Shown here: positions 152 through 61,660 of the stretch, in pieces
How the letters are laid out: every line of letters begins with the position of its first letter
Numbering within the stretch: position 1 is the first letter of the stretch
Assembly: GCA_963819815.1 (NCBI GenBank)
Contig: CAWFXL010000001.1
Span: 1,152,001-1,216,000 of the forward strand
DNA from: an uncultured bacterium
GTDB lineage: Bacteria; Babelota; Babeliae; Babelales; Babelaceae
DNA length: 64,000 nucleotides
Reading direction: 5' to 3'
Program-made: the position numbers and the translations under genes
Notes under the pieces: model-generated
What the model was told of the DNA's origin: nothing
The model's input: only the letters and a program-made list of their open reading frames with translations
The model's database searches: none

Positions 152-526
152 TTACCCCGCTGCACCATTGCCTAATGCACCACCCAGCCCCAGCGCTACG
201 TGTTGAGCAACGCCATGGAGTCCATTCCCGGCAGCTACATGATTCATATCATGGAATAATCTTCTCATACCAGCGGATGGCCGAAATGATGGACATAACA
301 TGAATCCAGCAATTCCAATAGCTAAGGCAATGATAATAACTTTATTAGAAAATACCTGTGATGCTGCGAGAATCCCAGCACCAGCAGATTCTAATCGCCA
401 TCTAGATAGAAATTCCGCAATTGACCTGGTAGACGGTAATGTTACTGCAGCAGCATGAAGGCTCTGACAAGAACCTGCTCCGCCCAGTAAAAGGGCAAGA
501 AGTACATAGTTTGTATAGTGCTTCAT
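152..526 (-). CDS. small hypothetical membrane/secreted protein
   Basis: 124-aa ORF with GGGGA SD upstream, hydrophobic N-terminal signal-like segment and a second hydrophobic stretch (VIIIALAIGIAGFML). Confidence 0.6.
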   Translation of the reverse strand: MKHYTNYVLLALLLGGAGSCQSLHAAAVTLPSTRSIAEFLSRWRLESAGAGILAASQVFSNKVIIIALAIGIAGFMLCPSFRPSAGMRRLFHDMNHVAAGNGLHGVAQHVALGLGGALGNGAAG

Positions 527-657: not shown

Positions 658-2313
658 TTAGGACGAATGATTAAAACCTTGCTCAAACGCAGCATATTTT
701 TGCATAGCAAAATCTACTGCAACGACAATAAGCTCAGGAGTGATAAGACCATCTTCACGAATAGAGGCATCTGATATAAGGCCATTGATAATACCTTCGA
801 GCTCACCCCCTGAAAGTCCATCCGTCTTGTAGGCAAGATCCGAAAGGACCGTATCTGACAAGTTCTTTTGAACAGATTCAATGAATTCAGGGCTATTCTC
901 ACTAGGATCGAGCATCAGTTTATCTCGATATAAGGCAAGGATACCTAAACGTTCACGCTCCGCAGGAAGGGGAATTTCTATAGAATCATCAATACGTCTT
1001 TTCATTGCCTCATCAAGTACTTCTGGATGGTTCGTTCCAAACACCAACATAACCTTATTACTACGCTCACCGGTAAGATTAAGAAAGTTAGTAAGCAGCT
1101 GATACGATTCTGAAGAAATATCCGCACCCGACCTTCCTCCTAAGAATGCTTCGGCCTCATCAATAAAAAGTATAAGCCCACCTGTAGGAGCATGTTGTGC
1201 CCATTCAAAAAGCTTGTTCATATGACTAATCCCTTCTCCCCGACCCCGATATTGCGAAAAGGAAGCGCCTGACATAATCACATAGTCCATGTCCGAATGC
1301 TCTGCTAAAATACGGGCAAACATAGTTTTACCTGTGCCGGGAGGACCCCACAGAAGAAGATTTCTGTAGCGAATATTTTTTTGGCCAGCAATGATTTTTT
1401 CATGTATCGTCCGCGCTGCAAGAGCAATAGAATCTAAGCGCTCAGTAAGATCAGGTGCGCATATCATCCGAGGTTTTTCTTTTTTAGTGCTGCCCAAAAG
1501 ATAGCACAAGAAGCGCTGCAGATAATTTTTATGCGAGGTTTCAAGTACTAAAGCGGGTGTCCTTAAATTTCTATCAATATGCCTCCAAAGAAACCATGAA
1601 CTTATAAGGAGCACTCCACCTATTAGCACATTTCTCACAACCTTTTGGGAGGCATCATCAAGAGCATCGCCAACCTCTTCCACGCCGCCACGCACATTCT
1701 GTGCGGCTGCTCTCACAGCTCTATGAGCTGCTCCGCCATCCAGATTTAATGCTTCAAAGTGTTCAAAAAGTATACGTACCTCATCAACAGCAAGGTTTCG
1801 CATGTCTTCAATCAGTGCTTTCATCACACCATCTTCATTAATATAATCCTTGAGGGTATTAATTATTTTTCTCAGGGCTTCACGTCCTTCACCATCGGGA
1901 TTATATAAGTCGCCTATCGCAATTGCACCATTTTTAAATAAATTTTTCATGAACTGTGCGCCTGCTGCTTCTTTATCTTTAGAATCGGTTGCCGCATTCA
2001 GCGCTTTAAAAAAGGTGTTAACTATCTCTTTCATCTGAGCGTCCTGGCTCTTAACCTCAGGATTTACCAACCCACCTGGAATTACCTGTTGCCTCGGTTG
2101 CAATCGCTGTTGAATATTTTCCAACGCTCCGTCAACGGTAGCTGAGCCCATGGCTCTAAATGGATATTTAAGGACATCAGTAATACCTGTATAAATGCCA
2201 GATAACGCACGAACAAAAATATTTGACTGCGGTTGCTCTGACTGAACCACCGCCTGCAAAGAAAGGCTATAGAAAATACATAAGAACCCTAAACTTACCA
2301 GCTTACAATGCAT
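658..2313 (-). CDS. AAA+ ATPase, ATAD3-like, with N-terminal signal peptide and internal TM segment
   Basis: Walker A GPPGTGKT, Walker B LFIDEAE, SRH TNHPEVLDEAMKRR; HSDMDYVIMSG, KLFEWA and TPALVLETS match motifs I recall from eukaryotic ATAD3. Confidence 0.85.
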   Translation of the reverse strand: MHCKLVSLGFLCIFYSLSLQAVVQSEQPQSNIFVRALSGIYTGITDVLKYPFRAMGSATVDGALENIQQRLQPRQQVIPGGLVNPEVKSQDAQMKEIVNTFFKALNAATDSKDKEAAGAQFMKNLFKNGAIAIGDLYNPDGEGREALRKIINTLKDYINEDGVMKALIEDMRNLAVDEVRILFEHFEALNLDGGAAHRAVRAAAQNVRGGVEEVGDALDDASQKVVRNVLIGGVLLISSWFLWRHIDRNLRTPALVLETSHKNYLQRFLCYLLGSTKKEKPRMICAPDLTERLDSIALAARTIHEKIIAGQKNIRYRNLLLWGPPGTGKTMFARILAEHSDMDYVIMSGASFSQYRGRGEGISHMNKLFEWAQHAPTGGLILFIDEAEAFLGGRSGADISSESYQLLTNFLNLTGERSNKVMLVFGTNHPEVLDEAMKRRIDDSIEIPLPAERERLGILALYRDKLMLDPSENSPEFIESVQKNLSDTVLSDLAYKTDGLSGGELEGIINGLISDASIREDGLITPELIVVAVDFAMQKYAAFEQGFNHSS

Positions 2314-2415
2314 GAACCCCCCTTAGTTCTAACATAGCAATCTGGAGCCTATGAAATCAAGGATTGATGCATTAATTGAAATGAAAAACGTGATGATAAG
2401 AAGGTTAAAGAGAGT

Positions 2416-2449
2416 GTACTAGGTGTATAATCTAAAATACACCTAGTAC
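2416..2449 (-). terminator. hairpin terminator downstream of the OMP-like gene
   Basis: 13-bp inverted repeat GTACTAGGTGTAT/ATACACCTAGTAC just past the stop at 2457. Confidence 0.6.
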
Positions 2450-2456
2450 TGAAGTC

Positions 2457-4643
2457 CTAGAAACTATACTGTAAGCCGATATTAAAGAAGTATGAAGTAT
2501 CATCACCTAGCAAGGGGACCCTATCATTTACGATACCGGTCTTGCCAATGTTTTCGATAAAGTCTTTTTGAGCTCGATTCAGTGGTCGCCCTTTAATATC
2601 TTTATAATGGCTGCCTGGAAAGAACAGTGCACTGACCGAATACAATTTTAGGTCTGGAAGCAGTTCAGCGTCTATAAATATATTGAGCTCAACACCAAGG
2701 AAGGTACGGGCGAACCGACTTACCGATTGTTGATGCGTTTTTAGGTCATGAAATGGTGTTGCAAAATCATTCCAGAACCACAAAACATTGGGGTTAAAGC
2801 TCCATTTACGGGTTGACCAACATGGTCGATACATGCAACCGGTACCCACAAACACTAGATTAGTAAATCGAGAAACAACTGTTGCAAATTGGTTGCGCAC
2901 ATCTTCAGAGGGGAAAGCGAGCGGTCGAGGAATACGTCCCTGGCCACTCAACAAGTAGGCGCTTTTTACACGCGTTCCTGAATAGACTTCTTGAAGGCCA
3001 ATAAACCCTTCATAGACTTCATCTCGAATATGGTCACCACGCTTGATATGATCTTTATTAGGGTTTGGACCACCGCTTGCATACCCAAGGCCAGCACAGA
3101 CCTTAAGATCTGGCTTACATACAAGATAGCCCATATCAAACACAAACATAGAGCCATGGAACTTGTTAGTATACCCGTCACTAAACCGATCTCTATCGTT
3201 AATAAGTATACCCAGACTGTTTACCCCAATCACTTTCCCATTTTCAAGCTGGGTCTCAGGAGATACATCAATAATATCTTGGTTTTCTGGAACATTTAAA
3301 GCAAGAGGCGACTTCAGCGTCGGTTCCTCCCCAGGGGGCGCCTGGCGAACTCTGCTGTTCACAATAACTGCAGTTCCCGCTCTATTTTCAGGTCTAATAA
3401 CGTTACGATCCCACCCACAAACTCTCTGGTGACCAAAGTTATGTGCTGTATCAAAACCCCAATCAAATCGGCCCCAATCACTTTCAGCAGCGATACCTAT
3501 AGTAATAAGATCACTTCTAGCGTCACCGCGGAACTCAATTTTTTGCTCAGGATTATGATTATACAATATATAAGGTTCAATACGGCTCGCAGCATTATTG
3601 CGCCACATCGTGTGTATTTTGAGCCGAGCAGCCAGAAGATAATTAATCACACCAAAACCACGAGCCTGATCATTTCTATGAAAATATTGTTGACACCGTA
3701 TCTTTGCATTGGTCTGAGAAAAGGATGCCCCTTTATTATCTAAAATAGCACCATATAAATCGTAAAATAATATCCCTTTACAAAGCTCACCAGAAAGCTT
3801 GCCTCCAAATGCATATTGATCAACAGCATATTCAGAAATGAATCCTAAATCAGACGCATCAAGAGCATACGCAACTCCTAATGCAATCCCTCGCCCAAGT
3901 TCAAACGGGAAAGCACCGAAGGTTAAACTATGAGGACTTGAAAAGGGAAGACACATAAGATCATTTAACGAAAACTGAATCCACAACTCTCGAATCCAGA
4001 GAAAGTGAAGCGGAATTCCATGGCCATGCTCCCCAAAGGAGGTCCCGAACTCATTAACTGCAGCAGACGTTGTTGAAGCAATAGACTCAGGATCACCCCA
4101 AACCCCTTTGTTACGAATAGTCATCTTAGCATAGACAATGTCGTACGGCACCTTGGGCTGCCCATACCGAAATTGCGTAATGCAATCTACCGTATGACGA
4201 AAATAAATCACCCGATCAGTAGGATTATCGTTATTCAAAAGCCTCAGATTCTTCCCATAAAAGAACTCAGGGAGGCGTAGACGCACTTCAAACTTAAGTT
4301 CGCTATCACCTGGATGAAACACCATGCTTCCTTTTTTAGGAGGCCCAGACGTCTCATCCTTTTTTTCTACGGCTTCTAGTTCATTGGTTGTAGGATTTTG
4401 TGCTTCTTCACCTGTATTGGTCTTCGCCTCCTCATGAACTTCTTGCTTTGCTGGACTACCTGTTGAAGAAGTTTGCTGGACCTGTTGAATCTTCTGAACA
4501 GGAGTTTCATGACCTGCTGCAGCGCCTTTCTTTATTGAAGGTTTATAGCTATGAGAAGATATGCTATCTTGAGCTTTTACGTAAGCATTTGAGCAGATGA
4601 CCCCAAGCCCCATTACTACCTCCAGGCAAAGACGCCGATTCAT
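2457..4643 (-). CDS. putative outer-membrane beta-barrel protein
   Basis: AGAGGAG SD before ATG 4643, signal peptide, low-complexity N-terminus, alternating aromatic beta-strands, C-terminal YFFNIGLQYSF BAM-type signal. Confidence 0.65.
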   Translation of the reverse strand: MNRRLCLEVVMGLGVICSNAYVKAQDSISSHSYKPSIKKGAAAGHETPVQKIQQVQQTSSTGSPAKQEVHEEAKTNTGEEAQNPTTNELEAVEKKDETSGPPKKGSMVFHPGDSELKFEVRLRLPEFFYGKNLRLLNNDNPTDRVIYFRHTVDCITQFRYGQPKVPYDIVYAKMTIRNKGVWGDPESIASTTSAAVNEFGTSFGEHGHGIPLHFLWIRELWIQFSLNDLMCLPFSSPHSLTFGAFPFELGRGIALGVAYALDASDLGFISEYAVDQYAFGGKLSGELCKGILFYDLYGAILDNKGASFSQTNAKIRCQQYFHRNDQARGFGVINYLLAARLKIHTMWRNNAASRIEPYILYNHNPEQKIEFRGDARSDLITIGIAAESDWGRFDWGFDTAHNFGHQRVCGWDRNVIRPENRAGTAVIVNSRVRQAPPGEEPTLKSPLALNVPENQDIIDVSPETQLENGKVIGVNSLGILINDRDRFSDGYTNKFHGSMFVFDMGYLVCKPDLKVCAGLGYASGGPNPNKDHIKRGDHIRDEVYEGFIGLQEVYSGTRVKSAYLLSGQGRIPRPLAFPSEDVRNQFATVVSRFTNLVFVGTGCMYRPCWSTRKWSFNPNVLWFWNDFATPFHDLKTHQQSVSRFARTFLGVELNIFIDAELLPDLKLYSVSALFFPGSHYKDIKGRPLNRAQKDFIENIGKTGIVNDRVPLLGDDTSYFFNIGLQYSF

Positions 4644-4879
4644 AAAAACTCCTCTGTGCGAGAACAAGAAACAATGAACACCAACGCTTGCATTACCCGA
4701 AGCTTACAGAACACTCTGAAAATCCACTGAAAAATAGACTTTTTTAGTGTGACAATCTCTCTAAGTTTATGTTAATATTTACGCGAGATCAACTTGATTT
4801 CATGTCCTACTCACTTTCCTACAAGAAGTAAAAAGGGAAATATTTCCCCATACTCTAAACTTACCAAGCAGGCAAAAAT

Positions 4880-25752: not shown

Positions 25753-28119
25753 TTATGCGCTTTGCGCAGCTGGTCTTTGCACGATCGGTTTTATTCCGAT
25801 CGGTGCTTGCTTAGAGACAAGAACTCGCTTCAGTTTATGGGGATCATAAAGAGGGATAGGAGGTTCTTTTTTCTGTCCTTGTAAGATTTTAAGGCCACAG
25901 AGGGAAGTGTCGGTATTCGTTCCTGCGGCAAGAAATCGATCAATTGTTTTTTGTTCGCTTTCATCTTTAAGAAAGAGTCGATAAATCGGATCGCGTGGTA
26001 CCAAGGGTGTTTGATCTCTCGTAACAAAGTTTTTATGGTCGCACAGGTATTCGTTCGTTTTATTCGTCCAACGAGATCTGGGCTCTAAGATGGTTGGCAT
26101 AACAAAAACGGTAAGATTTGTGGTGATCGTTTCTGCTTGGGTACCTCTAAAAAATGCACCAAAGATCGGTACATGTCCTAAGATGGGAGTGTAGCTACCA
26201 AAATCAAGATTATCGACACGAAGAAGGCCACCCATCACAAGAATCTCTCCCGAGTTGAGTGTGGCTGTGGTTGTTAGTTCCTGTGTACGCCGAGTTAAAT
26301 TAGTCGTGTTGGTGTACCTATCATCTTTAAATCCTACAACTATTCTAAGACGGGTATCTGAAATAACGTGAGGAACCACATTGACGGAAAACGTTGCTGG
26401 TAAGTCGACTATAGGAATCGTGGCAGTACCATTGGTGGTGATAACAAGATCACCTGTCGTACGAATCATAGTGCTTGAATCAAGCAATCCCTCCATGTGA
26501 TTCTTGACGGTCACATAGGGATACGAATTTATTCTTGCAGATACTACCGTATTAAGAATTTCAAGGAGTCCAAATATACCTGGGGTCTTAGGATCGTTAA
26601 GAGATATCAACATAGATCCTGAGGCAATTTGGCTTGGAACATTGCCAGGCCCAATAACCTGTAGAAGGTCGCTTGCAAGCTGGGTAGGTGGTATTCCCAG
26701 TACCGAGACTACGGGAGTAATATGGGATGCTAAGTATTGCACCCCATGAGGAAGTATTGAAGAATCTGTTTTACTTCTGATGGTGCCTGAAACATTGGTT
26801 GTTTGGTCATAGGCAAACTCGACGACAAGGACTTCTAAGAGGACCTGCGGTTGAGGAGTGTCGAGCTGCTCTATAAGCTTTTTAATGATGTGCCAATCTT
26901 TCTGGCGTGCTGCAATGAGGAGTCGGTTGCCTGCATTAGTGGCTATAAAGTCTAATTTTTGTACCTCCTCAAATCCTTTTTGCTCAATGGCAATATCTTC
27001 TGTTTGGAGGGCTGGTTTGACAAGAGTTGACTCGAGAGCAGCGATTGCCACACCCTGAAATAGGGGCGGTTTTTCACTTTCAGCAGTAGCTTGCTCTCCT
27101 GTAGGGAGTGCTGCGGCAACGATACGGTTAAGTATAGGAGCCGTTTTGACACTATCAAGATAGTTAAGGTCATAATAATGGAGAATAGATTCTCCAGCAT
27201 CTTCTTGGAGATCAAGGCTATCTTGTATAAAATCGATGATCCTATCTATATTTGCTTTACGGCCCATGAGTATGACGCCATTTCTTGCGGGATCTGCGAC
27301 CATTTTGGTATCTTCGGTGATAAAATTAAGGCCATCAGCTTTAGGACCTTTTCGAATAAAAGTTCGTATCGTATCAGTTCCTGCTGCCATCTTAAGAGAT
27401 TCAAAGACGTTCACGACCTCTTGTGCAGGAAGGTACTTGAGAGGCACATAGGCTACATGTTCTTTCATTCCTTGATTGTCGAACTCTTTGAGTAGCTGTC
27501 CGATAGATGCGGCATGCGAAGCTTTGTCGATGATAATGATGGCATTACTTCTTGGATCAAACATGAGTGAGGCATTGTAGGTGAGGAGCTGTTTCAACAT
27601 CATAGACAAAGGATGAGAATCTTTTTCTGCAACCTCGGGAACCTTTAAATTTTTAAGATAATGAATGTAGATGATGCGCCCATCATCATGCGGCAACTCC
27701 TCAGGAAGAACTCCTGCATAGACAGGTAAGGGTTCCCGGTTAATAGCTCCACCGTCGACACTTGCATTACGCACAATAGTAAAGTTTTGCTCTTGCTTAA
27801 ATAGGCTAAAGCCTGATAATTCTAAGAACGTCTTTAAAAGGTTCCATGCAGCATCTTGCGAACTCTCTTTTTCTTGTGGTAGATAGGTGATCTGTTGTTG
27901 TTTGAGCATCTCAAGATCAGCAGCTCTTTGCGGGAACAGAAGATTTGATCCTGACGGGGCCATTTTTTCAAGAAGGTCTATCAGCGATTTCTTTTTAAAA
28001 GAAAAGGGCACTTTCCTATCCGGCTCATGAGAATGCTCATTAGACGACTCTGCATGGAGCATCATGCCTACACTGAGCATGGTCCCCATGACCCAAACAT
28101 GATTCCATCGTACATTCAT
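25753..28119 (-). CDS. secretin (GspD-like), paralog 3
   Basis: Signal peptide, N-domain repeats (DPRSNAIII, DPARNGVIL), LDTPQPQVLLEV, GEILVMGGL, TPILGHVPIFGAFF. Confidence 0.88.
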   Translation of the reverse strand: MNVRWNHVWVMGTMLSVGMMLHAESSNEHSHEPDRKVPFSFKKKSLIDLLEKMAPSGSNLLFPQRAADLEMLKQQQITYLPQEKESSQDAAWNLLKTFLELSGFSLFKQEQNFTIVRNASVDGGAINREPLPVYAGVLPEELPHDDGRIIYIHYLKNLKVPEVAEKDSHPLSMMLKQLLTYNASLMFDPRSNAIIIIDKASHAASIGQLLKEFDNQGMKEHVAYVPLKYLPAQEVVNVFESLKMAAGTDTIRTFIRKGPKADGLNFITEDTKMVADPARNGVILMGRKANIDRIIDFIQDSLDLQEDAGESILHYYDLNYLDSVKTAPILNRIVAAALPTGEQATAESEKPPLFQGVAIAALESTLVKPALQTEDIAIEQKGFEEVQKLDFIATNAGNRLLIAARQKDWHIIKKLIEQLDTPQPQVLLEVLVVEFAYDQTTNVSGTIRSKTDSSILPHGVQYLASHITPVVSVLGIPPTQLASDLLQVIGPGNVPSQIASGSMLISLNDPKTPGIFGLLEILNTVVSARINSYPYVTVKNHMEGLLDSSTMIRTTGDLVITTNGTATIPIVDLPATFSVNVVPHVISDTRLRIVVGFKDDRYTNTTNLTRRTQELTTTATLNSGEILVMGGLLRVDNLDFGSYTPILGHVPIFGAFFRGTQAETITTNLTVFVMPTILEPRSRWTNKTNEYLCDHKNFVTRDQTPLVPRDPIYRLFLKDESEQKTIDRFLAAGTNTDTSLCGLKILQGQKKEPPIPLYDPHKLKRVLVSKQAPIGIKPIVQRPAAQSA

Positions 28120-28130
28120 GGCTATCGTCC

Positions 28131-30578
28131 TTAAGCAACTAACTCAGCAACTTCGCCGGGAGTAGCCTTTTTTGTTATAGGGGGCTCCGGACGTTTTGTT
28201 GGTCTACGTGCTTCCCTGCGACGCTGTCTTGAACCTTTTATATATTCTGCATCAGGTGGGTTGCTTACCTGGCTCAAGTATTTTGGTAGAACTTGTTCTG
28301 CTGGATTTGTACCTTTAAAGAAGAGCCGAGTAATCGGATCTTTTGATTCACCAAAAATTGCGAAGTCATCAATGTCACGCTGACCTTTGCGAATTTTATC
28401 TGCAGTATACACATCAAGGCCACCACGCAGTTTTGGATGAACGATCGTAGGGCAGATAAAAATGGCGATATTAGTCGTTGTTGGCATACGGCTTTTACTA
28501 CTAAAGAATGAACCTATTATAGGAATTCGCGACAAAATAGGGGTACCCGTAACGATGTCATTTTGTGTCGTGCTTGCAAGCCCTCCAATTACCAGGACCT
28601 GTCCACTTTCTAAATTGGTATTGGTATTTACCCGTCGTGTAAGACGCGTATTAGAGTTAGCATCAACAAAGGTATTGATATCTACAGCGACTTGGAGACT
28701 AAGCCGCTGTAGGGAGCTTAAACGTGGTATCATCTGCACCTGCAGTGTTGCCGGAAGATCGACAATTTCAACAGTAATTACCCCTGCAGCTCCTGGAATT
28801 GCGTTACCTACAACGCGGCGGAGCTCCTGGTTTGTGAGTGTTGCTTTCTGATTATTTGTCGTTATCAGGTACGGGTGTGAAAGAATTTTGCTATATAGTG
28901 CCGTATCTAAGATTTGTAAGAGACCAAATATACCTGGAGTTGAAGGATCATTAATTGAAACAATCGTTGACCCTGGAGCAAGCAATGAAGTGAGTGAAGG
29001 ATTGCTGGCATTGGCACCGGTAATTATTCCCAGTAAATCTACATCAAGCTGTGGCGGAGTTGCCCCAAGTACGTTATTGACGGCTGTTATGTTTGAGGAA
29101 AGAAGTTGAAATCCATTAGATGGAAGATTCGTTGCGGTCTTATTACGGGTGGTTCCTGCAATAAGTTTTTGTCGCGTGCCGGTGACATCTGCGATAACTA
29201 CCTCAAGAATAACATAGGGCTGTGGCTTATCAACTGCTTCTATGAGATCCTTAAGCCTCACCCAATCATCTTGTAATGCTGCAACAATTAGCCTGTTGCC
29301 TCCAGTAAAGATTTTTTGAGAGCCAAGGCCTGTAGGGAGGAAGCCTCCAGTTGCTTCAAGTGTAATTTCCTCTGTGGTCGTTTTTATATCAACCTCTTTT
29401 ACTTCTTCAGCTGCGATGACGACGCCTTGGAAATACCGTTCTGGGCCTGCCGGTTGTCCTGCTGTTGCTTGAGTTCCTGTAGGTGGGAGTGGAGAAACAA
29501 CTTGATTTAACACTGTTGCAAATTGAGTGGCATCGAGGTACTGAAGGTCATAGGAGTGGAGGACCGACTTACCACTATCAGGTGCTGTATCCATATAGGT
29601 TGATACAAAATCAGCAATTCGCTCCACCGATGATTGGCGGCCCATGAGGATAATATTGTTTTGTCGTGGATCTGCTACAAGAACGGTATGTTCTGCAAAG
29701 CTTGATAAGGATTCTGTACGGGAATCATGCCGTATAGAAGGTCCAGATCCGTCACCTCCAGCGGCTGCACGGAGAGACTCAAATATTTTTACGACATCTT
29801 GGGCCGGTGTGTTATTCAGATGAACGACCTGAATAGTTTCATGGAACCCGCTATGGTCAAGTTCATCGATGATACGCATAACTGAGGCTATCGTGTTTGC
29901 TTTATCCGTAATAATTATAGCATTTGTTTTTTGTTCAAACACAACGGGAGCACCGGGAGTAAGCATGTCTTTAAGGATGCGCGCAATGGCGTTGGTATCC
30001 TTGTCCTTTTCATCAGGTACGCGCAGATTTCTTAGATAATAGATGTACCGTATATATTCTTGGCTATCGGGAAGCTTATCCGGTTTCACATTTGCAAAGA
30101 TAGGTAAAACTGAACGGCTGATACCCGGCTCTAGAGGTTTGCCAACGCGCTCGATGGAATATAAGAAGGGCTTCTTTGGACTTATTGCAAAGCCAGAGAG
30201 CTCGAGAAAAGTACTGAGGAGCTGCCAGGCCTCTTCAATCGGGATTTCCATACGCCCTTGTGGTCGGTAGGTGATCGTTTGCGCCTTCAGTATTTCAAGG
30301 TCTGCTGCATTTTGGGGCAGAATAATATTGGCCTCCTTTTTAAGAGCCAATTCGCCGATAATATCGACTAAACTTTTCTTTTCAAATGAAAAATTGATGA
30401 ACCCTTTTTGGGGTTCTTTCTTTTGAACAAAATCGAAGGGTTCATCTTTTAGCGGTACATCTTGAAGTAGAGAATTTGGGGTGGGTGTATCATCTTTTGC
30501 ATAAGCGGCAAAAGATAAAGCAACCCCTACAAGGAGCATAGAAAGAACCCGACGAGAAAAGAATTGCAGGTCGATCAT
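28131..30578 (-). CDS. secretin (GspD-like), paralog 2
   Basis: Signal peptide, TNAIII/DPRQNNIIL N-domains, DKPQPYVILEV, GQVLVIGGL, TPILSRIPIIGSFF. Confidence 0.9.
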   Translation of the reverse strand: MIDLQFFSRRVLSMLLVGVALSFAAYAKDDTPTPNSLLQDVPLKDEPFDFVQKKEPQKGFINFSFEKKSLVDIIGELALKKEANIILPQNAADLEILKAQTITYRPQGRMEIPIEEAWQLLSTFLELSGFAISPKKPFLYSIERVGKPLEPGISRSVLPIFANVKPDKLPDSQEYIRYIYYLRNLRVPDEKDKDTNAIARILKDMLTPGAPVVFEQKTNAIIITDKANTIASVMRIIDELDHSGFHETIQVVHLNNTPAQDVVKIFESLRAAAGGDGSGPSIRHDSRTESLSSFAEHTVLVADPRQNNIILMGRQSSVERIADFVSTYMDTAPDSGKSVLHSYDLQYLDATQFATVLNQVVSPLPPTGTQATAGQPAGPERYFQGVVIAAEEVKEVDIKTTTEEITLEATGGFLPTGLGSQKIFTGGNRLIVAALQDDWVRLKDLIEAVDKPQPYVILEVVIADVTGTRQKLIAGTTRNKTATNLPSNGFQLLSSNITAVNNVLGATPPQLDVDLLGIITGANASNPSLTSLLAPGSTIVSINDPSTPGIFGLLQILDTALYSKILSHPYLITTNNQKATLTNQELRRVVGNAIPGAAGVITVEIVDLPATLQVQMIPRLSSLQRLSLQVAVDINTFVDANSNTRLTRRVNTNTNLESGQVLVIGGLASTTQNDIVTGTPILSRIPIIGSFFSSKSRMPTTTNIAIFICPTIVHPKLRGGLDVYTADKIRKGQRDIDDFAIFGESKDPITRLFFKGTNPAEQVLPKYLSQVSNPPDAEYIKGSRQRRREARRPTKRPEPPITKKATPGEVAELVA

Positions 30579-32686: not shown

Positions 32687-35508
32687 GCAAGGACTCCTTC
32701 TTGGTCAACAAGGTCTAGAAGCCCTTGGCGCTTTTCTGGTGAAGACGAACGTGCTGGTTTTGTTTCTAGCGGAGAATCGTCCAAGTTGGCTTGTTTACGC
32801 TGTGAGGCATCTATGTACCGTTGTTGTGTAGCCACAAACTTATCAAGAGCGCTGGCCTGTTTCTCTTTATGATCACTGAAGAACCATCGATGTATAGGGT
32901 CACGTTTTTCAGAGCGCGAGCGCATAGAATACAGTGAGTCTTTAATGTCATTGATATGTCCAAAGGTATAGGTTTCAACGACCTCAGGTTTGATAATCTC
33001 AGGGCAAATGAGAATGAGAAGACTTGTGCGTTCAACAGTTTTCTTTTTACTCTTAAAGAGCCATCCAAGAAGCGGTATATCACCTAGAACAGGTACTTTT
33101 TGAATGGTCTCTGAGATCGTATCTTGGATAAAGCCGCCAAGAGCAAGAACCTCGCGGTTGGCAAGGAGTGCTTCGGTACTTATTTTTCGAATAATACGGT
33201 TCTGTGTAGTAGCATCGGTAAATTGGCCGAGCTCAACGTATACATTGAGATCAACCATATCATCATAACTTATCTGCGGGGTGATGACGATTCTAAGATC
33301 TGCAGAGAGGTCACCTTGAGCCTGAGTCTGGGTTTGACCTGTTACGATTGAGGTAGTAGTACGTCGCGTTTCCCCCACTTTAAATTCAGCCTTGTATTTA
33401 TGAGTTGCGATAAGGAACGGGTTAGCAACGACGCTGGTTCGCGTATATGATTCAAGTGCTTGCAACAGGCCGAAGAAGCCAAACATGTCTTGTCCGAGGG
33501 TCACCAAGGTACTTCCTGCCTGAAATGGTGAAACCCCATTGACACTGTTTGCAAGATTAATCAGATTGCCAAGTAGGCGCACTGCTCCGTTAGGAACTTG
33601 AGTGGGAGTCGTTCCTGAAGGAGGATTGGTAATGATAGGTCCAAGCATTGAAGTTTGGAAGTTAATATTGTTTTTTCCTAGGATGCTATCAAGGCCTCCA
33701 GTTCCGTCGCAGCAGGCTACACTATTTCTTAATTGAGTTCCTAACTCATTGGTATTGGTAAGATCAACGTTAAGAATAAGAATCTTGATGATCACTTGGG
33801 GCTGCTCGACATCAAGTTTTTGAATGACCTCTCTCAGTTTGAGGAACTCTTCATAATCAGCATTGATAATGAGCCTGTTAGCTGATGGTTCATCGGTAAT
33901 TCTTACGGTAGGTTTAAAGAACTTATTGCCATCGCGGACACCCCCCACGAGGGCGGGCGCAGTGTTAGCAGGATAGGAGTTAAACTTCTGTATGACTTCG
34001 TTTAATATTTTTGCAAGCGAAGTTGCGTCGATGTATTTAAGTTGAATGATATGTAATGGAGAAAACGGTAATTCAAGTGTCTTGTCGACATAGGTTTTCA
34101 CAAAGTCTTCAAAGCGCTTAATATTTTCGTGTGTACCTAAAACGATGAGCGAGTTGGTATAAGGCTCCTCAAATACTCGGGTAGCTTCAGTAAAGTATTG
34201 TGTGGTACTCGGTTTTCTCTGGCGCATATAGGGATTGAATGTGGCGCTCTTCGGGTCTTTTCCAATTAATCGATAATAGAGCTCTCGAACTTCACGTGCA
34301 TCTGTATGTTTTAATCGGATGATGGAGAGAGTTTCGGGTAATGTTACTTGGTCGATTTCCCTGAGAATGCCCATGACCGATTTAATATTTGCGGCCTTAT
34401 CAGTGATGATAACAGCACGTAGTGCTGGTACTTCGATAATAGGTGCAGAAGAGCCACTTTTAAGTTGTTCAATTATTTGAACAACCGTAGAGAGATCGGC
34501 GTTCTCTGCAAAGTATACATACCGAATTTTTGCATCGGTGTTTGGAAGTAACTCAGGATCGATGCCGATAAAGGTAGGCATCGGTTCACGGTTAGCAGAT
34601 GGTTTATCTCGTGAGGCGCTTGCAGTGACTCGGTACGTTCGTGGCTGTGTTGCAGGAATAATAGAGAACCCAGCCATTTCAAGGAAGGTAAGTCCAATAT
34701 CCCAGGCCTCCTTCAGTGAAAGGGGGACCATAGACTTAAAAGTTATTTTAGTACCCGCTAACGGTTGGAGCCCCTCTGCACGATTAGGCTCGACATAATC
34801 ATCTAGAATAAACGTAATGTTAAGAACATCTGAAAGGAATTTAAGCAGCTCGGAAATTTCTTCATTATCAAAATTCATTTCAACACGTTCTTCAGGATCA
34901 GCCCCTTTCCAGGGCTCGAGATACTGTCCTAAATAAATAGCTCCCGATGCGGTAAGTTTTTTAAGTGCTTGCTCATTCTCCTGTTTTTGCTCTTGATCAG
35001 TAAGCGAAGGAAGCTCTCCTGGTAAGGTAACATCGGCCATAGTGACCGTTGGCACCAGCTCATGTTCACGCTTAGAGGGAGCTACTTTGCCTGACTTGCT
35101 ACCTTTTTTAGACTTGCCAGGAGGTACCGGTTTGTGCTGCACTTGGGGAATATCAATGATATCAAGCACATCCTGCGCTGGCTTTCGTTTGGTTTCTTTA
35201 GGCTGATCTTTTTGGTCGCCAAGCGCAGGTACCGAACCAAAAGGAATATTCGTAATTTCAACATTTCCACCCGCAACAGATTCTTTTTGGGGCTTAGCGG
35301 GTTCTCCACCCTTTGGCTCTTGGGGGGGCTTTTCAGGAGAAGTTTCTGGCGCGGAGGGAGCAGTAGATACAGAGGGTAGCATGTCACTAAGCTTACCTAC
35401 GTTATCTTGGCTGCTTGGGCTTTCGACGGCTGTCTCAGCCTTAAGGTGAGCTAATCCGCCAACAAGAAGAACCAACATTAAGGTCAAGCGAATGAGCATG
35501 TACTTCAT
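32683..35508 (-). CDS. gspD: secretin (GspD-like), paralog 1 with long Pro/Lys-rich N-terminal extension
   Basis: MNFDNEEI N0, LKHTDA/LKYIDA N-domains, LDVEQPQV, VLALGGFI, KVPVLGDIPLLGWLF. Confidence 0.9.
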   Translation of the reverse strand: MKYMLIRLTLMLVLLVGGLAHLKAETAVESPSSQDNVGKLSDMLPSVSTAPSAPETSPEKPPQEPKGGEPAKPQKESVAGGNVEITNIPFGSVPALGDQKDQPKETKRKPAQDVLDIIDIPQVQHKPVPPGKSKKGSKSGKVAPSKREHELVPTVTMADVTLPGELPSLTDQEQKQENEQALKKLTASGAIYLGQYLEPWKGADPEERVEMNFDNEEISELLKFLSDVLNITFILDDYVEPNRAEGLQPLAGTKITFKSMVPLSLKEAWDIGLTFLEMAGFSIIPATQPRTYRVTASASRDKPSANREPMPTFIGIDPELLPNTDAKIRYVYFAENADLSTVVQIIEQLKSGSSAPIIEVPALRAVIITDKAANIKSVMGILREIDQVTLPETLSIIRLKHTDAREVRELYYRLIGKDPKSATFNPYMRQRKPSTTQYFTEATRVFEEPYTNSLIVLGTHENIKRFEDFVKTYVDKTLELPFSPLHIIQLKYIDATSLAKILNEVIQKFNSYPANTAPALVGGVRDGNKFFKPTVRITDEPSANRLIINADYEEFLKLREVIQKLDVEQPQVIIKILILNVDLTNTNELGTQLRNSVACCDGTGGLDSILGKNNINFQTSMLGPIITNPPSGTTPTQVPNGAVRLLGNLINLANSVNGVSPFQAGSTLVTLGQDMFGFFGLLQALESYTRTSVVANPFLIATHKYKAEFKVGETRRTTTSIVTGQTQTQAQGDLSADLRIVITPQISYDDMVDLNVYVELGQFTDATTQNRIIRKISTEALLANREVLALGGFIQDTISETIQKVPVLGDIPLLGWLFKSKKKTVERTSLLILICPEIIKPEVVETYTFGHINDIKDSLYSMRSRSEKRDPIHRWFFSDHKEKQASALDKFVATQQRYIDASQRKQANLDDSPLETKPARSSSPEKRQGLLDLVDQEGVLA

Positions 35509-58499: not shown

Positions 58500-59148
58500 G
58501 TTTTTTACGATAAGAATGTTCGAGTTTTAAAAAGAGTAATGATACTATTGAGGTTATTAAAAGATAGAGAAGTCCCACCAGGGTATATACTCCCAGGGCA
58601 TTATAGGACTGGGAAACAAAGATTTCACCGCGCTTATACAGCTCAAGAACTCCAATAGTTGATGCTAAACTTGAATCTTTAATGAGCGTAATAAATTCAT
58701 TTCCTAAGGCAGGTAGAACGATTCTCAATGCTTGAGGAAGAACGATATAGCGTGTGATATCATAGCGTGATAAGCCAAGCGTTGTTGCAGCTTCGATCTG
58801 TCCTTGTGAAACTGAAGTGATTCCTGAACGAACAATTTGGCTGATATAGGCACTGCTATTTAAGCCAATAGCTATAATGGCGGTTGGTAAAGGCGCTATA
58901 TGGATGCCTAGGTTTGGTAACATAAGAAAAAAGAACATAATCTGGAGCAGCATAGGAGTACCGCGGATGATAGTTACATACAGCGTAACCAAGAAACGCA
59001 GAAGCTTTGAAGAGCCTGTTTGAGCTATACCAAGAAGTGTACCTCCAAAAAATCCAAGTAGTGAGCCACAGAAGGCTATTTGGAGGGTAACTAAGACTCC
59101 CCTAAGAAGCTGTGGAGCTGCTGAGGTAATAAGAGCGAGATCGATCAT
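58486..59148 (-). CDS. polar amino-acid ABC transporter permease
   Basis: IRGTP.L.Q, SAY.S.I.R.GI.SV..GQ.EAA, LPQA.R, KDSSL. Confidence 0.93.
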   Translation of the reverse strand: MIDLALITSAAPQLLRGVLVTLQIAFCGSLLGFFGGTLLGIAQTGSSKLLRFLVTLYVTIIRGTPMLLQIMFFFLMLPNLGIHIAPLPTAIIAIGLNSSAYISQIVRSGITSVSQGQIEAATTLGLSRYDITRYIVLPQALRIVLPALGNEFITLIKDSSLASTIGVLELYKRGEIFVSQSYNALGVYTLVGLLYLLITSIVSLLFLKLEHSYRKKHARN

Positions 59149-59918
59149 AGTACGTTCCACTTCTTCTTGAGAGCTGCAAGGGTACCATCAGCTTCCATAT
59201 CATCAAGCGCCTTCTGTACTTTTTGAACAAACTCTTCAGGAAGATGCTTAGATATAGCAAGGGCATTTTCTTCATCAGTCTGAGGTATGACATGGACCTT
59301 AAAGCGAGTATCACCTTCTTTTACATAGGGCTGTAAAGTAAATGCTGCCGTTACGAAAGCATCAGCTTTGTTATACTCAAGAGCTGTTAAGGCATCCGTA
59401 ACGCGGGGTAAGCGTAGGAGCTCCATAATGGCCATTGAGGACATGAGCGAGGTCATGTATGCTTCTGCTGTATACCCGGTATTTACGATGACCTCTTTCA
59501 ATTTAAGATCTTCAAGCCCTTGGATATCTGATGAAGATTTGGTGACGATGAGTAGTGGGTTACCTGAGAGATATGATTTGGTAAAGTGAACACGTTTTGC
59601 CCGTTCAGGAGTTGGTGTCATTCCTGCGGCAATTACATGAATTTGGCCAAGCTCAATTTGGGGGATTAACGTACCAAATGGTTTATCTTGAATCTCAATC
59701 TCAAGTGAAAGTCGTTTAGCGACCTCTTTAATCACATCAATATCAAAACCAACAATTTGGTCATCCTTGGGGCTTCTAAAAGAAAAAGGTGGAAAATCAG
59801 CGCTCGTTCCTACGATGAGAACTTGGCTTAGAGGCTTGACGTCACTTGTAGACCGGTACCAAAATAAGAAGCCAGCTGCTGCAATGAGTAACGCAAGTGT
59901 GCCGAGTATTTTTTTCAT
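59145..59918 (-). CDS. polar amino-acid ABC transporter substrate-binding protein
   Basis: VGTSADFPPF, GFDID, GMTPTPERAK.V.F, DGT...L.KKW. Confidence 0.93.
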   Translation of the reverse strand: MKKILGTLALLIAAAGFLFWYRSTSDVKPLSQVLIVGTSADFPPFSFRSPKDDQIVGFDIDVIKEVAKRLSLEIEIQDKPFGTLIPQIELGQIHVIAAGMTPTPERAKRVHFTKSYLSGNPLLIVTKSSSDIQGLEDLKLKEVIVNTGYTAEAYMTSLMSSMAIMELLRLPRVTDALTALEYNKADAFVTAAFTLQPYVKEGDTRFKVHVIPQTDEENALAISKHLPEEFVQKVQKALDDMEADGTLAALKKKWNVL

Positions 59919-59995
59919 AGGTTACGTCCTTAGGTGGATGTTGTACTGGGTGAAGCTGAAAGCAGTATAGCTCAGAGTAAGCTGAGCTGCAAATA

Positions 59996-60601
59996 TCATG
60001 AAGAAAAGAGCTCTTTTCTTCGGGCAATAACAGAATAGATAGTTCCGTCTTCTGAATGTCCAGTATCCTGCACTTCGTACAGCTCTTTGGCTTCGGCAAA
60101 GTAGATACTCTCAAAATCTTTTAAAAGCTCTCGAAGCTCTTTTTCGGTAAACAAGGGAACTAACTCAGAGCTTTCTTCGGTAAAGAAACCGTCAATTTGA
60201 GTATTTTTTTGAAGATGGGTGTAGAGTTCCCCTATGAAATACCCACCAGGTTTGATCTGCTTGACGATATGGTGCCATATACTCTGAAACTTTTCTGGTT
60301 GTATAAAACAGAGCGAAAATGACGCAACAAAAAGGTCAACTGGTGGAATAAGATTCCAGTCGAGCTCTTCGAAATTAGCCTGTATGGTATGTAATCGGGT
60401 AAGGTGCGGCTGAACGTCTTTTCGTAAGCGCACCTCGTCGAGAAACTCCTTAAAATTATCAATAGCAATCACTGAATAGCCATGATGAAGCAGGGCGCCC
60501 GTTTCTTCTCCCGTGCCAATGCCAAAGTCTATCGCAACAGCACCATCGGTGGCTGGGATAAGAGCAAGTGCTTTTGTTATAAGTGGACGTACGGTTTCCA
60601 T
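59996..60601 (-). CDS. class I SAM-dependent methyltransferase
   Basis: AIDFGIGTG motif I, VIAID, IKPGGYF. Confidence 0.85.
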   Translation of the reverse strand: METVRPLITKALALIPATDGAVAIDFGIGTGEETGALLHHGYSVIAIDNFKEFLDEVRLRKDVQPHLTRLHTIQANFEELDWNLIPPVDLFVASFSLCFIQPEKFQSIWHHIVKQIKPGGYFIGELYTHLQKNTQIDGFFTEESSELVPLFTEKELRELLKDFESIYFAEAKELYEVQDTGHSEDGTIYSVIARRKELFSS

Positions 60602-60706
60602 ATGAAAGTAGTGTATCGTGTATATGTTGGGTATACAAGGGGGGTTTTTTCAAATAAGGAGATCTGTAGTACACTTTCTCATGAACCCATATGTAACGGA
60701 GGTCCT

Positions 60707-61660
60707 ATGTATTTATCACGAATCTGTGCGTTTCTTCTCATGTCCCTGAGCTTCTTGTCTTGCTGCGGCCAGGAGCTTCCCTTGCCCCGTAAGCTAGCTT
60801 CAAAGGCGGTCCATTACATGGAAACTAAGCAACTTGATGCCTTTAGCTGCGGCTATAATTGCCTCTTCAATGCAGCGAACTTTCAGCAGAAGTGTAGCTT
60901 TCAAAATAAGGCATATAAGTATGAAACCTTTGAGGATAAGGTTCTGCCCTATGTACAAAACAAAAGATTAGATCCTCTACAGGCTAGTACCAATACCGAT
61001 ATACAGCATCTTGCACGTAATATCCTTAAGCTCATGCCCACGTACGACCTGTATAGAGGCAAAAAGACAAAGCAGATTGAGTTCTTGAGTTCTGAGTCCG
61101 TAAGGATTTCCTATCCTGCAGGCTCTTCTCAGGCAGAGATTAATCGCCGTATGGATGCAGCAGTTTTGCAAAAGCAGAAGGGTACTATTGAGTCTATAAA
61201 AAAGTACCTCACAAAGAACCCAATAACGGTCATTCATTTTATATGCTACGTAAAGAGCCAAGGTGTTGATCATGCTGTTCTTGTTTCATTGCATCAGAAT
61301 GCAACAGGTCGGGGTCTCTATCTTTTTGATAATATGAATGCGCTTGTGAATGAATCAAGTGATGTAGTACAGTGTATTGAGTATCTCTGTAAGACTTTTT
61401 CTGTAAGTTCTAGGGCGAGCTTCGTTGGCCCTGAATTGCCTCGGCGATGGCCCTATCTTGATAGTGATAGAGAGTATGCTAATCCTATGTATTATCCATA
61501 CTCTACTGAACCAGCTTATGAAGATGATGTATTTAGCTACATTGAGAATGTATGCAAGAACCTTTCAATAAGTCCTGCAAAACGCTTTGTTGCTACTCGC
61601 CGCCGGTCACGCAATAACAGATATAAAAAGAATCGTACATTTAAAAGATATCTTCGATGA
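60707..61660 (+). CDS. secreted hypothetical protein, putative papain-fold cysteine peptidase
   Basis: GGAGG SD, signal peptide, Q..AFSCG, later HAVLV and LFDNMN; basic C-terminus. Confidence 0.6.
   Translation: MYLSRICAFLLMSLSFLSCCGQELPLPRKLASKAVHYMETKQLDAFSCGYNCLFNAANFQQKCSFQNKAYKYETFEDKVLPYVQNKRLDPLQASTNTDIQHLARNILKLMPTYDLYRGKKTKQIEFLSSESVRISYPAGSSQAEINRRMDAAVLQKQKGTIESIKKYLTKNPITVIHFICYVKSQGVDHAVLVSLHQNATGRGLYLFDNMNALVNESSDVVQCIEYLCKTFSVSSRASFVGPELPRRWPYLDSDREYANPMYYPYSTEPAYEDDVFSYIENVCKNLSISPAKRFVATRRRSRNNRYKKNRTFKRYLR

Follow-up and report, generated by a model that had tools for sequence, protein, structure and literature searches.

Does the mitochondrial ATPase ATAD3 have a relative in bacteria, and what would such a protein do in a bacterial cell? 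ATAD3, so far described only from mitochondria, is a protein that animals require and that is found mutated in neurological disease of humans; to our knowledge its evolutionary origin has not been addressed before. The question is raised by a gene on contig CAWFXL010000001.1 of assembly GCA_963819815.1, a 1.64-Mb genome (88% complete) from a bacterium of the phylum Dependentiae (TM6). We analyzed a stretch of 64,000 nucleotides of this contig (positions 1,152,001 to 1,216,000), referred to below as the window, in which the gene occupies positions 658..2313 of the minus strand (stop codon included) and encodes a protein of 551 aa (P0001), as taken from the open reading frame (ORF) list and its translation. 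An earlier description made from the letters alone (the sequence-only reading) saw in it a bacterial homolog of ATAD3 with a signal peptide, host-derived or ancestral, and possibly an effector acting on host mitochondria. We found that the homology extends from a juxtamembrane motif to the C-terminus, that the N-terminal half is a different, signal-led domain, and that the protein is probably a resident motor of the bacterial inner membrane. What is new here is that bacteria combine the motor and anchor of ATAD3 with an N-terminal domain of another kind, led by a signal peptide. A literature search, with supplements outside its scope, found no paper describing a bacterial relative of ATAD3; the terms ‘AAA’ and ‘ATPase’ occur zero times in the main text of two Dependentiae genome papers (PMC6561590, PMC4776705), and automatic annotation names the proteins of this family ‘AAA family ATPase’.

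Relationship of the C-terminal half to ATAD3

All strings quoted in the sequence-only reading are present in the translation of P0001, specifically RHIDRNLRTPALVLETS at residues 244-260, RNLLLWGPPGTGKTMFA at 317-333, LAEHSDMDYVIMSG at 336-349, MNKLFEWA at 365-372, GLILFIDEAEAFL at 379-391 and LTGERSNKVMLV at 413-424. The ATAD3 motifs given there as their parallels were confirmed in two ATAD3 sequences (P0048 and P0049), which read LGKPSLV(R/Q)ETS, MDYAI(L/M)(T/S)G, VFDWA and RTG(E/D)QS(G/D)(K/R)FM(M/L)V, in register with P0001. With BLASTP, P0001 aligns to a spider ATAD3B-like protein (P0049, with an ATAD3_N plus AAA architecture confirmed by Pfam) with 39% identity over 307 aa (E 7e-53; residues 244-540). 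The alignment begins at the juxtamembrane motif RHIDRNLRTPALVLETS (1534..1584, minus strand), whose ATAD3 counterpart is RYIEAHLGKPSLVQETS according to both BLASTP and the multiple alignment, and it stops 11 residues short of the C-terminus. Because it reaches beyond the AAA core on both sides, the likeness is more than that of a shared AAA fold. Within the juxtamembrane motif, P253, L255 and S260 are invariant across 30 relatives.

Database searches gave a consistent picture. A word-seeded search of 5.8 billion proteins listed 120 matches; among these, ranks 1-42 carry no ATAD3_N (the two named ones are both Dependentiae), while 22 of the 120 do carry ATAD3_N (PF12037) and reach 160-178 bits from a single AAA domain. 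Among the matches listed, the ATAD3_N proteins are thus the top-ranked with a recognizable non-AAA family, none with another such family standing above them, and CDC48 does not exceed 142 bits even when its two domains are added together. An exhaustive HMMER search with residues 246-551 against 1.84 billion representatives returned 403 proteins at E<=1e-30. In the best 150 of these 403, tested for ATAD3_N only with a profile of our own, four carry that domain, and among the matches listed more than 100 clusters (50% identity) are ATAD3_N-less relatives that outscore eukaryotic ATAD3. In the reciprocal direction, a profile of the C-terminal regions of 22 eukaryotic ATAD3 sequences matched P0001 end to end (231.8 bits, model positions 2-292). 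Another Dependentiae subfamily reached up to 315 bits with this profile, close below the lowest true ATAD3 (321.7 bits), and the FtsH-like and other AAA proteins of this genome as well as archaeal CDC48 domains scored 59-72 bits. Viral contigs gave generic AAA-level matches only (E 3e-19 or weaker), none of which covers the juxtamembrane motif at residues 244-260.

The phylogeny agrees with these searches. In a careful maximum-likelihood tree (IQ-TREE; 58 rows, 313 columns, LG+C20+F+G4 with posterior mean site frequencies, PMSF), from which 30 rows with long branches, dead paralogs and near-duplicates had been dropped, eukaryotic ATAD3 and its bacterial relatives fall into a single clade (support 100/99), apart from CDC48, FtsH and other AAA proteins. 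As outgroups we used the D1 and D2 domains of CDC48 together with four further AAA proteins encoded in this genome, including its FtsH-like protein, which groups with the outgroup in the trees. A quick tree of 88 rows recovered the same joint clade (support 99). The HMMER/BLAST searches and AAA phylogeny that the sequence-only reading had proposed as a check thus revealed no clustering with FtsH- or SpoVK-like proteins or with CDC48.

In the alignment, the bacterial family has several characters in common with ATAD3 that neither FtsH nor CDC48 shows: the motifs (K/T)P.L(V/I).E(T/S)S, LF.WA, FIDEAEAFL and FL..TG..S.K.M(L/M)V, and a lid insertion with a C-terminal helix. The second region of homology is also two residues shorter in the bacterial family and in ATAD3, reading ..RR/DR-I/M-D-D/E instead of R-P/A-G-R-F/I-D/G. 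As judged from alignment, profiles and trees, the region 244-551, which comprises the juxtamembrane motif, the AAA domain, the lid and the C-terminal helix, is therefore homologous to ATAD3 and nearer to it than to any other AAA family, and by the same comparisons ATAD3 has a large bacterial sister family.

Organization of the AAA motor

The AAA domain (PF00004) covers residues 319-449 (967..1359, minus strand) and matches the full Pfam model (positions 1-131, E 1.2e-23). It contains a Walker A motif (GPPGTGKT, 323-330), a Walker B motif (D385/E386), a sensor-1 asparagine (N428) and two arginines at the arginine-finger position (R439/R440), of which only R440 is invariant across the 30 relatives; the catalytic motifs are mostly invariant in the same set. 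By these catalytic motifs, the motor of P0001 is intact. Its pore loop 1 reads S-Q-Y-R-G-R-G-E-G and includes an aromatic residue, which is typical of substrate-threading AAA motors. The lid with the ATAD3-type insertion and the C-terminal helix follow at residues 450-551 (661..966, minus strand), aligned to ATAD3 through residue 540.

We take the classical AAA clade to be defined by Walker A and B, sensor-1, the arginine finger, a lid motif G.SG.(D/E)L and the lack of a sensor-2 arginine, and P0001 belongs to this clade by PF00004, motifs and fold. The AlphaFold2 (AF2) model is confident for residues 280-548, with a predicted local distance difference test score (pLDDT) of about 84-95 for the AAA domain and about 90 for the AAA domain plus lid. 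The best Foldseek matches of this model are Rpt subunits, p97, FtsHi and an i-AAA ATPase domain.

N-terminal half and predicted membrane topology

P0001 starts with a signal-peptide-like N-terminus (residues 1-21; 2251..2313, minus strand), which consists of MHCK, a hydrophobic core and a stretch ending in SLQA followed by VV, the cleavage site being placed by eye. In keeping with the signal peptide named in the sequence-only reading, the N-terminus is hydrophobic, with a Kyte-Doolittle average of 2.02 over residues 5-23. A comparable N-terminal stretch occurs in 93 of 129 bacterial family members and in none of the 22 eukaryotic ATAD3 sequences.

The following residues 22-224 (1642..2250, minus strand) form an all-helical domain that is predicted to be periplasmic and has no Pfam or NCBIfam match. 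The statement that the N-terminal half lacks any recognizable resemblance was borne out, since Pfam found only PF00004 at residues 319-449 in the whole protein. No Pfam family and no ATAD3_N (E<=0.01) was found in the first 300 residues, and a protein-atlas look-up of residues 24-224 gave no usable match. A profile from 11 ATAD3 N-terminal regions, run with filters off (--max), detected no ATAD3_N in bacterial proteins at E<0.1, and Pfam found it in none of eight further bacterial relatives. The domain is kept among close orthologs, which share the motifs YPFK..GSATVDGA, GDLYNPDGEGR and FE.F.ELNLDGGAA. The AF2 models show helices only, with a pLDDT below 50 for residues 1-233 in the full protein (30 relatives) and a mean pLDDT of 46 when residues 1-262 were modeled with 18 closer relatives.

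A second hydrophobic segment at residues 225-243 (1585..1641, minus strand) is a putative transmembrane helix, in line with the membrane segment that the sequence-only reading had noticed ahead of the ATAD3-like motifs (Kyte-Doolittle 1.66; AF2 helix 222-251). It directly precedes the juxtamembrane motif (RHIDRNL). A comparable segment is present in the same position in 87 of 129 bacterial relatives and in 21 of 22 eukaryotic ATAD3 sequences. Among the 87 bacterial relatives with this segment, lysine plus arginine are more numerous after it than before it in 43, fewer in 22 and equal in 22.

In a group of relatives from other Dependentiae (P0018-P0030, P0035, P0039 and P0041) the signal-like stretch closes with (G/A)-M-(E/D), and then comes a run that is either acidic or rich in proline. 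The idea of a sorting motif [GA]-M-[ED] at the end of the signal peptide was rejected, as it is not enriched in the genome that encodes P0001 (5 of 332 signal-like ORFs vs. 3 in a control window).

Distribution in Dependentiae

Using residues 246-551 as query, we found a match in 82 of 261 Dependentiae genomes at E<=1e-35. A family profile (E<=1e-28) extended this to 128 of the 261 genomes, which represent 75 of 145 genera and include 95 of the 189 genomes of high quality. A single genome contains up to five copies, with only five candidates scored in each, and some matches close to the cut-off may be those of generic AAA proteins. Within Dependentiae, this is thus an accessory family that is both old and widely distributed. 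A search of one genome per prokaryote species returned 79 related loci, the 34 best of which represent the ATAD3-like family. Eighteen of these 34 are labeled Dependentiae, Babeliales, TM6 or Chromulinivoraceae, 11 ‘bacterium’, four ‘uncultured Pseudomonadota’ and one Oligoflexales; the four ‘Pseudomonadota’ rows nest in Dependentiae-labeled clades in the quick tree. The family loci include one in a Chromulinivoraceae MAG (L014). Among the relatives that do not look like Dependentiae, a cluster look-up labels only P0057, as an ‘Epsilonproteobacteria/Campylobacterota’ MAG, a label to be taken with caution.

A probable resident inner-membrane motor

The organization described above is best explained, with moderate confidence, by a resident AAA+ motor of the inner membrane with a periplasmic N-terminal domain and a cytoplasmic ATPase, the bacterial equivalent of the ATAD3 topology. 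The signal peptide would send the helical domain of about 200 residues through Sec into the periplasm. The hydrophobic segment 225-243 would then halt the transfer, so that the ATPase would remain in the cytoplasm, which contains ATP, and the protein would sit in the inner membrane like an FtsH minus its protease. By analogy with other classical AAA proteins, it may form a hexameric ring beneath the membrane and spend ATP on pulling or remodeling a substrate associated with the membrane, or on holding an assembly that spans the envelope. The signal peptide alone is no sign of secretion, because a long N-terminal domain reaches the periplasm only with a signal peptide. The Sec and type II components reported for TM6 (excerpts of PMC4776705 and PMC6561590) also speak for a resident protein.

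The proposed motor possibly works together with a catalytically dead neighbor. The genome encodes four members of the family, one of which, a tandem paralog of 479 aa, lies immediately downstream (G000:C1:1150433-1151872, minus strand; about 130-1570 bases before window position 1). Neither the Walker A threonine (GKR) nor the Walker B glutamate (DN) is left in it, and the sensor-1 asparagine and the arginine finger are lost as well. Its counterparts at three related loci (L010:8563-10170, L011:8352-9860 and L018:9199-10698) are equally degenerate (GKR/GKQ, DN/NN) and form one clade with it, and the catalytic decay is kept in all four syntenic loci examined. By its sequence, the paralog is probably a non-catalytic partner subunit; the conserved pair of an active and a dead copy suggests a hetero-oligomer, as in other AAA systems.

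Several observations weigh against a resident inner-membrane motor. The topology is predicted from hydropathy only, the internal segment includes R and N and has no more than moderate hydrophobicity (1.66), and the positive-inside bias has the right direction but is weak. By the thresholds used, 36 of 129 relatives are without a clear N-terminal stretch and 42 of 129 without a clear internal one, although some of these may be truncated gene calls. With a pLDDT below 50, an N-terminal domain acting as a periplasm-spanning stalk is conjecture. The N-terminal domains are hypervariable between subfamilies, a pattern also typical of host-interaction genes, and the same is true of a family that is accessory rather than core (128/261 genomes) and often multi-copy. 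As to the relationship with ATAD3, proteasomal, katanin/Vps4, Bcs1 and Msp1 branches stand outside the trees, in which the only outgroups are CDC48 and AAA proteins of this genome.

Origin of the family

A first alternative concerns the origin rather than the function, and is compatible with a resident motor as well as with an effector: the family may have been captured from a eukaryotic host, which we regard as possible but rather doubtful. Dependentiae live within eukaryotes, and ATAD3 has been placed in animals, plants and protists in the consulted excerpts of two papers (PMC3790746, PMC2063933), while the abstract of a third describes it as ‘conserved in metazoans’ (PMC8785211). A capture would also fit the mostly Dependentiae-type labels of the 34 family loci, including the nested ‘Pseudomonadota’ rows. 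When the bacteria were held together with ATAD3 outside, the approximately unbiased (AU) test did not reject this arrangement (p 0.33 for the careful tree, p 0.866 for the 88-row set), and in the 88-row set the constrained tree was even of higher likelihood.

The free trees point the other way. Eukaryotic ATAD3 is monophyletic in the careful tree (100/100) with no bacterial row within it, it joins five bacterial lineages in a polytomy at the base of the shared clade, and bacterial monophyly occurs in 0 of 200 bootstrap trees. The bacteria keep the aromatic residue of the pore loop, where eukaryotic ATAD3 has P-(M/L)-G, no bacterial member contains ATAD3_N in the profile and Pfam scans, and the family is deeply diversified (75/145 genera). 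The eukaryotic side of these comparisons is narrow and also tells against the capture, with 22 sequences that include no known plant or amoebozoan. A recent capture from the host, one form of the ‘host-derived or ancestral’ gene of the sequence-only reading, is unlikely because the family is old and deeply diversified within Dependentiae; for the rest of that statement, the AU tests (p 0.33 and 0.866) favor neither direction of transfer.

A more far-reaching proposal can be made only tentatively, and we consider it improbable: ATAD3 and the Dependentiae family would both derive from one bacterial envelope machine, whose bacterial members would be periplasm-spanning tethers between inner and outer membrane, perhaps for membrane or lipid traffic. 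ATAD3 would have entered eukaryotes from such a bacterium, its N-terminal domain being swapped for ATAD3_N. The excerpted text of one Dependentiae genome paper reports no evidence of lipid biosynthesis (PMC6561590).

A possible secreted effector

The second alternative is that P0001 is a secreted effector, exported via Sec and then by type II secretion or outer-membrane vesicles, which inserts by way of its hydrophobic segment in a host membrane (e.g., that of mitochondria) and mimics or perturbs host ATAD3. We consider this unlikely. Its appeal lies in the lifestyle of the Dependentiae, obligate intracellular parasites of protists. For Chromulinavorax, a member of the same phylum, the excerpted genome paper describes a host mitochondrion wrapped round the bacterium and reshaped, signal peptides on 44% of coding sequences, and outer-membrane vesicles (PMC6561590). 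The patchy, multi-copy distribution (128/261 genomes) and the fast divergence of the N-terminal domains would suit an effector, and so would a marginal internal segment, as in ATAD3, whose own segment is missed by transmembrane predictors according to the part of PMC2063933 drawn on here. The presence of secretin genes (PF00263) in the genome would also be in its favor, three of them lying in the window itself. These encode proteins of about 800-940 aa and lie close together on the minus strand, at window positions ~26086-26547, 28440-28895 and 32989-33459 (G000:C1:1178086-1185459). A further secretin locus, split by a TGA codon, is found at G000:C1:22164-22663.

Against an effector stands the topology itself. 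When a hydrophobic segment comes after a Sec signal, it normally acts as a stop-transfer sequence, so that the protein is anchored in the membrane and not secreted. Neither the type III marker FHIPEP nor the type IV marker VirB4 was found in this 88%-complete genome. P0001 is without ATAD3_N, the region that carries the contacts of ATAD3 to the outer membrane and to cytosolic partners in the excerpted account of bioRxiv 10.64898/2026.06.23.733767. The dead tandem partner, kept at all four syntenic loci, looks like part of a resident hetero-oligomeric machine, and the conserved neighbors of another subfamily (a lipoprotein-like thioredoxin and a DsbD-like protein) are envelope housekeeping genes. 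The effector on host mitochondria that the sequence-only reading had suggested is thus not supported as the first choice, given the signal peptide, the stop-transfer-like segment and the two missing secretion markers.

By far the least probable alternative is a generic bacterial AAA protein of the FtsH- or SpoVK-like type whose likeness to ATAD3 is the shared AAA fold only: Pfam indeed recognizes only PF00004, and the best named NCBIfam and PDB matches are PAN, CdvC, FtsH and Cdc48, but neither library contains ATAD3 (the ATAD3 query P0049 itself detects no ATAD3 chain in the PDB copy and likewise matches only Cdc48 and similar proteins), the NCBIfam scores are far under their cut-offs (PAN 76/500, FtsH TIGR01241 66.5/600, SpoVK TIGR02881 18.8/422.95), P0001 has no protease domain, and the generic type is ruled out by the BLASTP alignment flanking the AAA core, the reciprocal profile (232 vs. 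59-72 bits) and the joint clade (100/99).

Comparison with known AAA systems

ATAD3 and P0001 share the order of a hydrophobic segment, the motif (K/T)P.L(V/I).E(T/S)S, the AAA domain, the lid with its insertion and the C-terminal helix, together with the shortened second region of homology; they are 39% identical over 307 aa and group in the 100/99 clade. The orientation of the resident motor would match as well: in ATAD3 the N-terminal part spans the intermembrane space and the ATPase ring lies in the matrix (bioRxiv 10.64898/2026.06.23.733767, as excerpted), and in P0001 the N-terminal domain is predicted between two membranes with the ATPase innermost. Unlike ATAD3, P0001 has an N-terminal domain of about 200 residues that is unrelated in sequence and contains no ATAD3_N, and a cleavable-looking Sec signal peptide (found in 0/22 ATAD3 sequences). 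Pore loop 1 is aromatic in the bacteria (Q-Y in P0001, K-F or Q-F in relatives), whereas eukaryotic ATAD3 reads P-M/L-G. ATAD3 is eukaryotic, nuclear-encoded and mitochondrial, whereas P0001 is encoded on a bacterial contig of Dependentiae, is one of several copies and is paired with a dead paralog.

FtsH resembles the predicted organization of P0001 in having an N-terminal hydrophobic segment, a periplasmic domain, a second segment and a cytoplasmic classical AAA domain, and the best structural matches include the FtsHi chains of the Ycf2-FtsHi motor. Unlike FtsH, P0001 has no Peptidase_M41 (Pfam), ends about 100 residues past the AAA domain and scores 66.5 against a TIGR01241 cut-off of 600. 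Cdc48/p97/VAT and Rpt/PAN are the best matches of P0001 among solved structures, both by sequence (about 55 bits per domain) and by fold, and have the classical AAA features in common with it. They differ in being soluble, with double-ring or N-domain architectures, and have neither a membrane anchor nor the juxtamembrane motif nor a lid insertion of the ATAD3 type.

The gene and its neighbors

The ORF at 658..2313 is a real gene under purifying selection. Compared with the 96%-identical ortholog at locus L009, the ratio of non-synonymous to synonymous changes (pN/pS) is 0.17 for the N-terminal half and 0.095 for the C-terminal half, so that both halves are coding and constrained. A Shine-Dalgarno-like sequence, AAGGGGGG, was read directly 3 nucleotides upstream of the ATG (2317..2324, minus strand). 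The gene is resident in the genome and not a contamination, because its contig is bacterial and 1.6 Mb long, because its neighbors there are infB, nfo and aspS, in a gene order that is kept in six of the 34 related loci, and because the GC content around it is ordinary for the window.

Upstream, at 2457..4667 (minus strand), lies a gene for a 736-aa protein with a signal-like N-terminus, a C-terminus ending in GLQYSF and no Pfam or NCBIfam family. It shows 47-65% identity in five related genera and is better conserved than the adjoining ATAD3-like gene. We presume an outer-membrane location from its C-terminal aromatic motif only, and it is possibly a Dependentiae-specific outer-membrane protein. 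A pattern scan found a terminator-like hairpin of 13 bp between the two genes (2416..2449, minus strand), which suggests that the ATAD3-like gene is a separate transcription unit. An operon or complex of both genes was rejected, as they are adjacent only in the six of 34 loci that keep infB, nfo and aspS, with the hairpin in between.

On the downstream side, an ORF of 124 aa (152..526, minus strand) encodes a protein with a signal peptide and one hydrophobic segment. It is a paralog of the N-terminal part of the dead tandem copy, with which it shares the signal peptide; compared with the version of that copy at L009, the identity is 38% over 125 aa, and its own L009 ortholog is 85% identical. 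It is perhaps a small protein of the envelope, or else a fragment that arose by duplication of an N-terminal region.

The Dependentiae subfamily closest to eukaryotic ATAD3 is found at loci L025, L027-L032 and L035. Its neighbors include a signal-bearing, lipoprotein-like thioredoxin of about 160 aa (eight loci) and a DsbD-like membrane protein (three loci), surroundings that constitute an envelope redox neighborhood. A 500-aa signal-bearing protein without a known family is located directly upstream in five of these loci.

Elsewhere in the genome we observed two AAA paralogs of 720 and 773 aa (G000:C1:52113-54275 and 58553-60874, both minus strand). They have a signal-like N-terminus, a long N-terminal region without known identity and a C-terminal AAA domain, and represent another expanded AAA family that forms a very long separate branch (length about 2.1) in the outgroup.

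Significance

The bacterial sister family gives ATAD3 a prokaryotic context and raises a testable question of gene transfer between intracellular parasites and early eukaryotes. Its members are also simpler proteins for biochemistry. If ATAD3 and this family did come from a common bacterial envelope machine, a bacterial protein of small size, its pore loop intact, would be a tractable model for the unsolved mechanism of ATAD3. For the biology of the Dependentiae themselves, the finding points to an expanded family of envelope or host-directed ATPases.

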